Source: Escherichia coli (GTDB lineage: Bacteria > Pseudomonadota > Gammaproteobacteria > Enterobacterales > Enterobacteriaceae). From it: a stretch of DNA of 64,000 bases. A program made the translations under genes and the position numbers. Positions 7,871-11,860 of this stretch are shown here, in pieces (within the stretch, counting starts at the first letter, position 1; each line of letters begins with the position of its first letter). Where the stretch lies: the NCBI RefSeq assembly GCF_002854065.1, contig NZ_CP024147.1; one strand, given 5' to 3'. Under the pieces are notes generated by a model. It was not told where the DNA came from and made no database searches. It saw only the letters and a list, made by a program, of their open reading frames with translations.

Positions 7871-8535
7871 TATATGAAATTCCCTGTTGTTACTGAATTT
7901 GACAAACAATTCCATTAAAAACAATAGTTTGTACTATTTTTTCTGGTGCATCAGTCTGTTGATAATGAGCAAGACAAGTTACTGGTTTGCCCCCGTCAAG
8001 CCAGTTGATATGTATATTACCTTGTTGTTCAATACCACGAACAAATGCCTGACCACCTTGCCCTACATTACCAATAATATTTCCGTTCTCGTCATAAATA
8101 TCTGCGGCAAACGGAATGTTTTTACCGTCAGTCCGCTTGATGTTCATAATCGCTGATTGTCCCTGAACGGTTTCAAAACCAGCAAAGACAACAGACCCCT
8201 GGCGCGGTACAGCAATAGCACTGGTACTTTTCAATTCAACGTCATTTTCCAGACCGTTAATATCGAGTGCAATTCGGTTTTCATGGTATGGAGAGAGCGC
8301 GTTAGTAACGCCATATCCCCAACGGTCTACCGTGCTATTACCATAGTTAATACGCGCCCCTTTAGCTCCTGGCGCTTGTACAACGGCCAGAGTGTCTGAG
8401 TCGCTGAAGCTGTCATTACTGAAGGTAAGGCCGCCGCTATGTAAAACAAATCCGCCGTCGGTATTAAATGAGATTTGACGGCTATTATCACTACTTGCGG
8501 AAACTGAACTGGCAAGTGTTCCCCTGGATTTGCCC

Positions 8536-9441
8536 CTATATTTCCAGACATCTGTTATCACTTAACCCATTACAAGCCCGCTGCCGCAGATATTCCCGTG
8601 GCGAGCGATAACCCAGCGCACTATGCGGATGCCATTCGTTATAATGCTCGAACGCCTCTGCAAGGTTCTTTGCTGCCGTTAACCCGTCTGGTTTGGGCAT
8701 GATACTGATGTAGTCACGCTTTATCGTTTTCACGAAGCTCTCTGCTATTCCGTTACTCTCCGGACTCCGCACCGCCGTGTTCTTCGGTTCAAGTCCCAAC
8801 ATCCGGGCGAACTGGCGTGTTTCATTAGCCCGGTAGCATGAACCATTATCCGTCAGCCACTCCACTGGAGACGACGGAAGATCGTTGCCGAAGCGGCGTT
8901 CCACCGCTCCCAGCATGACGTCCTGTACTGTTTCACTGTTGAAGCCGCCGGTAGTGACCGCCCAGTGCAGTGCCTCACGATCACAGCAGTCCAGCGCGAA
9001 CGTGACACGCAGTCTCTCTCCGTTATCACAGCAGAACTCGAACCCGTCAGAGCACCATCGCTGATTGCTTTCTTTCACGGCCACTCTGCCTGTATGTGCC
9101 CGTTTCGATGGCGGTACAGCAGGTTTTCGCTCAAGCAACAGCGCATTCTGGCGCATGATCCGGTAAACACGTTTGGCATTGATCGCAGGCATACCATCAA
9201 GTTCTGCCTGTCTGCGAAGCAGCGCCCATACCCGACGATAACCATACGTGGGCAGCTCTCCGATAACATGGTGTATACGGAGAAGCACATCCGTATCATC
9301 AGTGTGACGACTGCGGCGGCCATCCATCCAGTCATCGGTTCGTCTGAGAATGACGTGCAACTGCGCACGCGACACCCGGAGACAACGGCTGACTAAGCTT
9401 ACTCCCCATCCCCGGGCAATAAGGGCGCGTGCGCTATCCAC
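8536..9441 (-). CDS. insD: IS2 transposase OrfB (InsD)
   Basis: 301-aa ORF with IS3-family DDE/integrase core, recognised as IS2 InsD. Confidence 0.9.
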
Positions 9442-9764
9442 TTTTTTGCCCGTCCATATTCAACGGCTTCTTTGAGGAGTTCATTTTCCATCGTTTTCTT
9501 GCCGAGCAGGCGCTGGAGTTCTTTAATCTGCTTCATGGCGGCAGCAAGTTCAGAGGCAGGAACAACCTGTTCTCCGGCGGCGACAGCAGTAAGACTTCCT
9601 TCCTGGTATTGCTTACGCCAGAGAAATAACTGGCTGGCTGCTACACCATGTTGCCGGGCAACGAGGGAGACCGTCATCCCCGGTTCAAAGCTCTGCTGAA
9701 CAATTGCGATCTTTTCCTGTGTGGTACGCCGTCTGCGTTTCTCCGGCCCTAAGACATCAATCAT
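9399..9764 (-). CDS. insC: IS2 transposase OrfA (InsC)
   Basis: Track ORF 9399..9809; start taken at MIDVLGPEK... (121 aa); helix-turn-helix OrfA; overlaps insD at an A6G slippery site (+ strand CTTTTTT, 9441-9447). Confidence 0.88.
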
Positions 9765-11860
9765 CTGTTCTCCAATGACTAGTCTAAAAACTAGTATTAA
9801 GACTATCACTTATTTAAGTGATATTGGTTGTCTGGAGATTCAGGGGGCCAGTCTATCCCCAGGGAGATTCATAGCTCGCATATCCACCGATATAGCTCAA
9901 ATCATCACTGGATTTCATCATCGAATAGCCTGTATTGACGCTATAACTGATATGGTTTTCGGTGCTATAACCACTACTGCTGATACTGAGTTGATTGCTA
10001 CCGTTGAAATCACTATTTAACTGAGTATCAATGCTCTGAAAACCAGAGTCGCGATGTTCTGAACCCAGTAACTTTTCGATAGGAATGCTAAAGCTTAGAT
10101 AGATGCTGTCTTCATTACCGCCGTCCTGGCTCCAGGACCGTTGGGCACTAATGCTGTAGCTTCCCCACGATGCGCTGTTACTATAACCAATGGAGTAGTT
10201 AGTATTATTTTGTCCGTCCGCCCAGTAGTCAGACCAACTTCCGGCAAGATAGAATGAGCCATAGTCTTTCTTTTCAAACTTGAGGGGTTGGTTAATACTA
10301 ACCGTAACCTGATTTTTCATGCGTGAATAGTTACGCATATTTTTAGGTTCCAGGTCCTGTTCCGGATGTTTTACTTCATCAATCAATGTCAGGGCATCGT
10401 TAAGCCCCAGATAATTCTGGGTTGAATAACGGTAAGCGGCGATATTGAGCGAGGTTCTGGTATCTTCAAATAACTTATTCCAGGAAATGCGATAGCTTTG
10501 TCCGCGGTAGGTTTTATCGTCCGGAATTTGCACATCCGAGTGGGTTACATCGACTGAAAACGCACCGTACGCGGTATTCAGGCCAAGGCCCAACAGCCCG
10601 GCAGTATAGTTATTATCGGTAATTTGAATACCGGTATAACCTGTAAGATAGTTGTTCAGACCATAGTAGTAGCTGGCCTGGAACAAATTTGGTTCATTTT
10701 GAATATCGTCTTTTAATACCTGACCTGCACTGATGTCCCATCTTCCAACTCCAGGGCGTTGCATCTGAACTACCGAAGAAAATGGCTGGGAAAAAGTCCG
10801 TTTTGTGCCATCAGATTCTTCGATTGTGATAATGAGATCGCTGCCATAGCCTGATGGGCTTACATCATCAATGACAAATGCGCCTGGCGGCACGGTAGTC
10901 TCATAAATTTTATATCCGCCTTGGGTAATGGTGACTTTTGCGTTGGTATTAGCAACACCATGAATAATTGGCGCAAAACTGGCTAACGCAGGAGGTAGCA
11001 TTCGGCTGTCGCTGTATAAACGAACACCGCGAATACTGACAGAATCAAAGGTTTCCCCTGTTGTGTATGACTCACCCACAACTAATTGTGAACGCAAAAA
11101 GGCCAGGTCGCGCTGCAAATAGCGATTTTGAAAATCGTAATTACTGCCTGCATCGGTCATCCAGTTGTAGTTACCAGTGGCACGAAGCCGCCATGCGCCC
11201 AGATTTATACCGCCGTTAAATGCCGCATAAACACTGTCGTTTTTTCTGTCTGGTATTTCGCTGTGATATGCGTTGACATTGTAGGACAGCATTGCAGCGT
11301 TAATACCGTTTTCCCACAATGATGGATCAACATAGTTTTGGTAATTCTTCATTACCCAGGCTTGAGGAACGTTGATGTCCAGTCGTTGATCATTAACGTC
11401 GTAATGAACGGAAGCTTGAGGAATAACATTCCCCAGATCGAGACAGTCCCCTAGCTCTTCTTCTCGTTGAAGAAGGATGGCATTCTCGTCTTTTATATCA
11501 GGCTGATTAATGTGAAATTGCAATAAATTCTTCAGCGTGATACAAGCCTGCGCATTTTTCTTACCTTCGAGGGCAATAAAGGAGATGCTTTGGCTGATAA
11601 CTGGTTGATCGTTGACATAAACACTGACGTCATACACGCCGGGCAAGGTAGGGTTACCTTCGGTATACCGACTAAGGTCGATGTTAGAAGCATCTTGCCC
11701 CATCAAAAAGGTATTATCATATTCAACGTGTTCAGCGCTTATGGCACAGGGGCTTAACAGCAATGCGCAAAACGAGGCTATATAAGTAAGTTTGTTATTA
11801 TGCGTTTTTATGATTTTTCTGGACACGTTGTGCTTCCTGCTGCGTTTATTCCTGATTTAG

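Follow-up and report, generated by a model that had tools for sequence, protein, structure and literature searches.

Insertion sequence IS2 is a member of the IS3 family (IS2 group) and is well described in K-12, where it carries the insC and insD genes, is bounded by imperfect terminal repeats of 42 bp (IRL) and 41 bp (IRR), duplicates 5 bp of its target and makes use of a –1 frameshift at an A6G heptamer; the lengths of the two repeats and the geometry of the Pjunc promoter have been reported together with the pathway of transposition (PMC3299598). A described case of IS2 in a fimbrial locus is IS2::yqiG, in which the element breaks the usher gene of a chaperone-usher system in the cryptic K-12 operon ygiL-yqiGHI (PMC3032704, Table 5). 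In other cases the outward –35 of IRR has given rise to fusion promoters, documented for ampC (Jaurin and Normark, 1983), acrEF and neoR, a mechanism that requires a correctly spaced –10 in the flanking DNA (PMC9330008). As for the target locus, transcription of the yad operon starts at the yadN promoter and is under H-NS repression, and the Yad adhesin system has recently been implicated in the colonisation of tissues by extraintestinal pathogenic E. coli (PMC13245861), while in E. coli C two IS elements are found in the yad region (PMC6805351).

In the window, by which we mean the whole stretch of 64,000 nucleotides of E. coli DNA that was analysed, an IS2 interrupts the usher gene of the yad operon. 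The insertion is real but of an already known kind. It is best explained as a single simple transposition (copy-out/paste-in) of a complete and ordinary IS2, fairly recent, into the chromosomal Yad usher of an E. coli whose yad allele is divergent, and in this explanation, taken as a whole, we have high confidence. The element occupies positions 8525-9855 (1331 bp), its transposase genes lie on the minus strand, in the same direction as the yad operon, and all the coordinates of the original prediction hold. Its ends read TGGATTTGCCCC... at 8525 (IRR) and ...GGGGGCCAGTCTA at 9855 (IRL). The 41-bp IRR (8525-8565, minus strand) starts TGGATTTG... and faces the 3' fragment of the usher gene and the yadM/L/K/C homologs, whereas the 42-bp IRL (9814-9855, minus strand) starts TAGACTGG... 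and reads TAGACTGGCCCCC... on the minus strand; the repeats are imperfect, the arms at 8533-8565 and 9814-9846 being 79% complementary over 33 nt. Over its full length the copy is 100% identical to copies annotated in RefSeq as "IS3-like element IS2 family transposase", so that the claim of a complete element with both terminal repeats is confirmed in length, ends and identity. The predicted perfect duplication TCCCC was also found, at 8520-8524 on the left and 9856-9860 on the right, exactly 5 bp long and with no extension beyond these 5 bp.

The coding part of the element is equally regular. orfA (insC, 121 aa) runs on the minus strand over 9399-9764 from an ATG at 9764 and scores 238.8 bits with NF006928 (IS2 TnpA, cut-off 229), and orfB (insD, 301 aa) runs on the same strand over 8536-9441 from a GTG at 9441 and scores 723.9 bits with NF006918 (IS2 TnpB, cut-off 597), its region being the DDE catalytic part of the fused OrfAB transposase (409 aa). 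OrfA, OrfB and the fused OrfAB are all open, and the NCBIfam cut-offs for IS2 TnpA, IS2 TnpB and the IS3 family (NF033516) are exceeded. The slippery heptamer, A AAA AAG on the minus strand and CTTTTTT on the plus, lies at 9441-9447 and is correctly phased with respect to orfA, in agreement with the predicted insC/insD pair and its A6G site, and RefSeq marks the identical IS2 copies "programmed frameshift". A frameshift-stimulating structure downstream of the heptamer was considered and set aside, the fold of the 90 nt of RNA 3' of the slippery site (–40.9 kcal/mol, z = –1.86) being marginal and not convincing. The intact reading frames and ends, together with the differing IS2 sites in near-identical genomes, suggest that this copy would be capable of transposition. 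In all these traits the element does not differ from K-12 IS2; what is new, compared with the 5,426 complete RefSeq E. coli genomes, is only where it has inserted. Of these genomes 4,058 have an IS2 match with at least 80% element coverage, the median number of places in a genome being 4.

When IS2 and one copy of TCCCC are excised, a 2601-nt reading frame with no internal stop is restored, encoding an usher of 866 aa in which Pfam finds PF13954 PapC_N at residues 35-186, PF00577 Usher at 200-772 and PF13953 PapC_C at 781-845. The reconstructed protein scores 1641 bits with the equivalog HMM NF007337 (cut-off 830), is 85% identical to K-12 HtrE in a gap-free alignment and matches FimD/PapC structures with E values from 1e-125 to 1e-77; the locus lies between panB and folK, with the gene order of K-12. 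Judged by its position, the equivalog HMM and its identity to HtrE, the usher is an HtrE ortholog in the form of a divergent allele. The name htrE given to it by the original prediction is supported to this extent, but RefSeq does not apply it to the divergent allele, which is called "outer membrane usher protein" only.

This usher gene is not intact in the window, being split by IS2 after residue 657 of 866. The 5' fragment (9856-11826, minus strand, residues 1-657) retains PapC_N and most of the pore domain, and its product is stopped by a TAG (9855-9853) that is formed by the first three bases of IRL; the 3' fragment (7890-8524, minus strand, residues 658-866) holds the last barrel strands and the domains CTD1 and CTD2 (PapC_C). 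On this side 635 nt remain, stop codon included, which matches the predicted distance of about 210 codons from the 3' end. The crystal constructs 3ohn and 2vqi, which comprise the pore only, align to usher residues 164-688, with outer limits at 684-688, and by this alignment a break at 657 loses the last strands of the 24-strand barrel in addition to both C-terminal domains. The predicted inactivation of the usher thus stands, but the damage is greater than a loss of the C-terminal domains. With the last barrel strands and both of these domains gone the usher can be regarded as dead: from what is known of the FimD and PapC ushers, the truncated protein would be unable to close the pore or to hand over subunits, Yad fimbriae would not be assembled, and the strain would be unable to make them.

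The yad operon, which lies between panB and folK, consists here of yadN, a chaperone gene, the usher gene and the yadM/L/K/C homologs. Homologs of the yadM-yadC genes expected downstream of the usher are in place, but not all of them are intact: the yadM homolog, a minor fimbrial subunit gene at 7302-7870 on the minus strand, is a frameshifted pseudogene, a T-run at about 7770-7772 having lost 1 bp (T4 to T3). The deletion was considered as a possible homopolymer sequencing error and this was rejected, the same allele being found in at least five independent public samples. In four of the sequences recovered (L025-L028) the deletion co-occurs with an intact usher, so that the yadM lesion is older than IS2, and the operon was in decay before IS2 dealt it a second hit. 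An Rfam scan of positions 4500-14500 gave no family at gathering score.

Several lines of evidence bear on the age of the insertion. The same four sequences match the IS-excised window at 100% over 3.9-5.2 kb and have an empty target site, which reads CCCTGGGGAACACTTGCC; in eight more (L017-L024), compared over 9.5-14.6 kb, the differences from the IS-excised window are 1-4 substitutions and the yadM indel. A comparison with strains carrying an intact gene had been proposed earlier as a check; the exact 866-aa usher occurs without interruption in public assemblies (163 index blocks), and the junction of IS2 with the usher gene is found in none of the 5,426 complete RefSeq E. coli genomes. The absence of the junction from these genomes and the empty site in samples with identical flanks, together with the identity of this IS2 to other copies and the perfect target duplication, indicate that the insertion is recent, as the original prediction of a simple, fairly recent transposition had proposed. 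Owing to the same absence, the junction is a clean lineage marker. Three matches with 99-100% query coverage and 84-95% identity (H12-H14) were considered as a possible shared ancestral insertion and rejected, since mapping places their IS2 at other sites, with other duplications.

The insertion had been presented as a one-off event, a view that does not hold, the yad operon having been struck repeatedly by IS2 and IS1. In seven other strains (CUWW06, CM2, TUM9868, AHB7, TUM9803, EC130 and GPEC1054) an IS2 lies in the usher gene, each time with its own 5-bp duplication, and in further strains IS2 is found in yadL, between yadK and yadL or between yadV and yadN; IS1 interrupts the yadK and yadL homologs of near-identical relatives. 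CUWW06, the closest complete genome, is separated from the window by 8 substitutions and 1 indel in about 62.7 kb and carries its IS2 at a different site of the same usher gene. The present insertion shares with these other hits the gene or the operon, the 5-bp duplication proper to each IS2 and the pseudogene outcome. By contrast, the positions differ, the nearest being 12-22 bp away and one of those in opposite orientation, and several of the other elements are diverged IS2 variants (95-98%) or belong to another IS family. The likeness to IS2::yqiG is of the same kind, but in that case both the operon (pi-type yqi versus gamma4-type yad) and the strain are different. Such a pattern of IS2 and IS1 hits would fit a neutral or mildly favoured loss of a fimbrial system that is normally silenced by H-NS, and taken together with the yadM frameshift these hits are compatible with a silenced operon being lost neutrally.

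Among the other explanations, the one that survives best is that the hits are not neutral, either because the yad usher or operon is a preferred target of IS2 or because its loss is selected in this lineage. In the preferred-target version, the element would be attracted by DNA that is AT-rich, H-NS-bound or intrinsically curved, and a micro-hotspot would lie about 610-635 nt short of the gene's 3' terminus. Three of the eight independent usher insertions that were mapped do fall within 27 bp, namely at 631-635 in the window, 609-613 in AHB7 and 615-619, flipped, in TUM9803; in a simulation of uniform insertion P is 0.016 for this, falling to 0.006 when the site in the window is taken as given. 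The near-identical CUWW06, with its own IS2 elsewhere in the gene, and the IS1 copies in the yadK/yadL homologs of near-identical relatives point in the same direction, as do the base composition of the operon (38-46% G+C versus about 53-56% in the flanking genes) and the reported preference of IS2 for curved targets (PMC3299598). However, the cluster statistic is post hoc and the enrichment is modest, an IS2 lying no more than about 2.5 kb from the usher in about 52 genomes where about 30 would be expected if insertion were uniform, figures that ignore shared ancestry and the fact that essential genes are off limits. In addition, for a lineage present in 163 index blocks several independent hits in a dispensable operon of 7.5 kb are unsurprising, and orientation is even, IS2 being found near the usher in 24 genomes in the native orientation and in 28 in the flipped one. 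This latter count comes from a search in which a synthetic query with a flipped IS2 was used to test orientation; the first eight or so IS2 finds had all been co-oriented, and the orientation bias that they seemed to reveal was rejected as an artefact of same-strand joining in the search. On the whole, a non-neutral origin of these hits is possible but doubtful.

Within the explanation by recent transposition into a silenced operon, the three usher insertions within 27 bp are a weak hint of a local hotspot. That the segment at 610-635 nt is a genuine IS2 micro-hotspot, due for example to local curvature, or that the loss of Yad is positively selected, appears unlikely; either reading would account for the clustering of three independent IS2 insertions, in divergent alleles, inside 27 bp, and for the fact that genomes with near-identical yad-region DNA have between them at least four independent IS hits in the operon. 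A target signal resembling the inverted repeat was also considered, positions 8477-8492 matching the inner IRR at 13 of 16 bases, and was discarded as most likely due to chance. The yadM frameshift, the second IS2 site and the IS1 hits are of modest value for studies on IS target choice and on the decay of fimbrial genes; beyond the annotation of the strain, the significance of the insertion is small.

Much less probable is that the insertion activates or rewires the locus, with the IRR end, or read-through from an IS2 promoter, driving expression of the usher 3' fragment and of the subunit and adhesin genes that follow it, as the original prediction had suggested for the outward end of the element. 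As in the fusion promoters documented for ampC, acrEF and neoR (PMC9330008), the IRR carries an outward –35-like hexamer, TGGAAA, and here too it points toward the downstream genes; moreover, an ORF starting at a GTG inside IRR (8561) happens to run in frame into the usher 3' fragment. By contrast, the –10 that the mechanism needs at 16-18 bp is missing from the present flank, the candidates at this spacing (GGGGAA, GGGAAC and GGAACA) sharing only 1-2 of 6 positions with TATAAT, and a consensus promoter scan of the minus strand over 8480-8570 found no promoter, so that a fusion promoter at the IRR end was rejected and the suggestion that this end drives the downstream genes gains no support. 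Furthermore, with the usher missing and yadM frameshifted, any downstream subunits that were made would not be assembled. The IRR end would thus create no new promoter at the present site. No intrinsic terminator was found on the minus strand at the junction, and transcripts that enter IS2 from the yadN promoter would probably end by Rho-dependent polarity in 1.3 kb of poorly translated RNA, although weak read-through, originating at P_IRL or at the yadN promoter, may still reach the downstream genes.

Contigs assembled from short reads of independent public sequencing runs contain the two junctions. The left one is covered by a contig equal to window positions 5968-8553 at 100%, which was found through a 65-aa fragment of yadM, the product of the 223-aa ORF that starts in IRR being not on record; the right one is covered by contigs equal to 9828-13057 and 9828-11923, also at 100%. 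An assembly artefact, with a repeated IS2 misplaced inside a usher gene that is in truth intact, would be in line with the multicopy nature of IS2, repeats of this kind being a cause of misjoins, and with the absence of the junction from complete RefSeq genomes, but it is scarcely credible against a perfect 5-bp duplication around an exactly full-length element, and misassembly is ruled out by the presence of both junctions, base for base, in the contigs of the sequencing runs (both in ERR15740533, the right one in DRR831865), which break off 28-29 nt inside IS2, as expected at a genuine repeat boundary. The exact 657-aa product of the interrupted usher gene is also present in ERR15740533 and DRR831865, which perhaps stem from the very isolate to which the window belongs and thus may not be independent strains.

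The element interrupting the usher gene of the Yad fimbrial operon is IS2 itself, and the full-length 1331-bp copy with a TCCCC duplication described in the original prediction, as well as every coordinate given there, agrees with the sequence of 8400–9960 and with direct computation. The element spans 8525–9855 and carries its transposase genes on the minus strand, so that the 9855 end holds the left inverted repeat (IRL) and the 8525 end the right inverted repeat (IRR); on the plus strand its first bases are TGGATTTGCCCC and its last bases GGGGGCCAGTCTA. TCCCC is found on either side (8520–8524 and 9856–9860) as a repeat of exactly 5 bp, with no extension, and the inverted-repeat arms (8533–8565 and 9814–9846) are 79% complementary over 33 nt. 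This is the single IS2 copy within the 64-kb window, and it shows 100% identity, end to end, with RefSeq copies labelled “IS3-like element IS2 family transposase”. A match over 80% or more of the element is present in 4,058 of the 5,426 complete E. coli genomes searched, and genomes with any match have a median of 4 places. Its anatomy agrees with that of published IS2, which has a 41-bp IRR, a 42-bp IRL and a weak P_IRL promoter, and transposes by a copy-out/paste-in pathway via a minicircle (PMC3299598).

On the minus strand, orfA (121 aa) starts with the ATG at 9764, and orfB (301 aa) opens with a GTG at 9441, its stop codon ending at 8536. The slippery heptamer A AAA AAG (9447–9441; CTTTTTT on the plus strand), already recognized as an A6G site, is in the correct phase of orfA, and a computed –1 slip opens a 409-aa fused transposase (OrfAB), which scores above the cut-offs of the NCBIfam models for IS2 TnpB (723.9 bits, cut-off 597), IS2 TnpA (238.8 bits, cut-off 229) and IS3-family transposases (279.5 bits, cut-off 160). 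Compared with shuffled sequence, the RNA 3′ of the slippery site has only a marginal folding advantage (z = –1.86), and no Rfam family matches in the region.

Deletion of IS2 and one TCCCC copy restores a 2601-nt ORF (866 aa) free of internal stops, in which the Pfam domains PapC_N (35–186), Usher (200–772) and PapC_C (781–845) are recognized. The name htrE is a fair one, because the reconstructed protein scores 1641 bits against the NCBIfam equivalog NF007337 (cut-off 830), is 85% identical to K-12 HtrE in a gap-free alignment, and lies in the order of the K-12 yad locus (panB, adhesin, K/L/M homologs, usher, chaperone, yadN, folK, pcnB), an order also annotated in the near-identical relative CUWW06; the allele is, however, a divergent one, with about 78% DNA identity to the other allele class, and RefSeq names it only “outer membrane usher protein”. 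The 5′ fragment of the gene (9856–11826) encodes residues 1–657 and stops at a TAG supplied by the three outermost bases of the IS2 left end. In alignments, crystal constructs confined to the pore (3ohn for FimD, 2vqi for PapC) cover residues 164–688, so that the break removes the last barrel strands in addition to both C-terminal domains, whose loss had been anticipated. By analogy with FimD and PapC, the truncated usher would be unable to form the pore or to finish subunit handover. This is a textbook case of insertional inactivation, of an already-known kind, with a direct precedent in the K-12 IS2::yqiG insertion in another fimbrial usher gene (PMC3032704, Table 5). A 223-aa minus-strand ORF (7890–8561) starts with a GTG inside the IRR and continues in the reading frame of the usher 3′ fragment (7890–8524); no gene product is on record for it, any product would have no signal peptide, and the ORF is probably meaningless.

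The IRR end points toward the 3′ part of the usher gene and, beyond it, the yadM/L/K/C homologs, and the outward-facing end had been proposed to drive or block transcription of the downstream yadM–yadC genes. IS2 fusion promoters combine an outward –35 in the IRR with a correctly spaced –10 from the flank (PMC9330008), and the Pjunc geometry (PMC3299598) puts that –35 at TGGAAA. The hexamers 16, 17 and 18 bp away (GGGGAA, GGGAAC and GGAACA) match TATAAT at 1–2 of 6 positions, and a consensus scan of the IS2 junction found no minus-strand promoter or intrinsic terminator, so that the idea of a driving end loses its footing. Normally, the yadN promoter drives the operon and H-NS silences it (PMC13245861). 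The likeliest effect would be Rho-dependent polarity on transcripts entering the poorly translated IS2.

A misassembly is very unlikely, since both junctions are present in independent read data: the exact 657-aa truncated usher occurs in two public runs, ERR15740533 and DRR831865, whose contigs match window 9828–13057 and 9828–11923, respectively, at 100% and break off 28 nt into the IRL, and another ERR15740533 contig matches 5968–8553 at 100% and begins 29 nt inside the IRR. The junction is absent from the 5,426 complete RefSeq E. coli genomes searched. Many public assemblies (163 index blocks) encode precisely this 866-aa usher without interruption, intact-usher loci differing from the IS-excised window by 1–4 substitutions and one indel over 9.5–14.6 kb; four samples (L025–L028) match it at 100% over 3.9–5.2 kb, with the target site empty. 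The perfect duplication, the identity of the element to other copies, the lack of the junction in those complete genomes and the empty-site relatives thus show an insertion that is recent and simple, as the original prediction had it, and lineage-restricted.

The target operon had lost one minor subunit gene beforehand. The yadM homolog (7302–7870) is a pseudogene with a 1-bp deletion in a T-run at about 7770–7772, called relative to CUWW06, PapRG-04-4 and the near relatives L017–L024, which puts the gene out of frame from about codon 34 on. Besides the window, four or more public samples with an intact usher, L025–L028 among them, have the identical deletion, which shows that the frameshift is real and older than the IS2 insertion.

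What remains of mild interest is that IS elements have targeted the yad operon repeatedly, with a possible 27-bp micro-hotspot. In three K-12-type operons (L005–L007; strains E3, 2013C-4830 and STEC384), IS2 lies in yadL, between yadK and yadL, or between yadV and yadN, and several of these also carry an htrE frameshift or a stop codon within yadM, showing that decay of the operon is widespread; E. coli C carries two IS elements in its own yad region (PMC6805351). In near relatives of the window, contig breaks run into an IS1 end in the yadK homolog (L019 and L020, about 10363; window about 6129–6133) and in the yadL homolog (L023, about 9469; window about 7023–7027); the contigs of L021, L022 and L024 stop at these points too and carry no IS sequence there. 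The breaks into IS1, in assemblies that hardly differ from the window, point to independent IS1 insertions within one operon and one lineage. The operon (4900–13900) has 38–46% G+C versus about 53–56% in the flanking panB and pcnB, consistent with the reported H-NS silencing, and IS2 is reported to prefer curved targets (PMC3299598). Target preference or selection for loss is a possible cause of these hits, but regional IS2 enrichment is modest (about 52 genomes observed versus about 30 expected if uniform, with shared ancestry uncorrected), and neutral decay of a silenced operon accounts for the data. An apparent orientation bias of IS2 proved to be a search-tool artefact (24 genomes native versus 28 flipped).

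Within the usher gene, eight independent IS2 insertions were mapped, each with its own 5-bp duplication. Counted from the gene 3′ end on an intact reference (L004 6001–8601), they lie at 609–613 (AHB7, CTGAA), 615–619 (TUM9803, CGGAA, flipped orientation), 631–635 (window, TCCCC), about 834–838 (EC130, AGTGC), about 983–987 (GPEC1054, GATTT), 1655–1659 (CM2, TCCCG), 1718–1722 (TUM9868, GTTGG) and 2145–2149 (CUWW06, AACGT). Among complete genomes, CUWW06 is the closest to the window: across about 62.7 kb, 8 dispersed substitutions and the yadM indel separate the two, and their ushers are identical once the IS is removed (2601/2601). The IS2 of CUWW06 (NZ_CP182139.1, L001 8148–9478) is 100% identical to that of the window but occupies another position, some 150 codons from the usher 5′ end. 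Three of the eight insertions, those of the window, AHB7 (L003 6614–7944) and TUM9803 (L009 2120–3450), fall within 27 bp (reference 609–635; window about 8498–8524), that of TUM9803 in the opposite orientation and in an allele about 78% identical. Under uniform insertion such clustering has P = 0.016 (0.006 if the site in the window is taken as fixed), both from a post hoc statistic, and the segment may be an IS2 micro-hotspot. About 30 bp from the insertion, the target DNA at 8477–8492 (GACGGCTATTATCACT) matches the inner IRR at 8547–8562 (GACATCTGTTATCACT) at 13 of 16 positions, a resemblance most likely due to chance.
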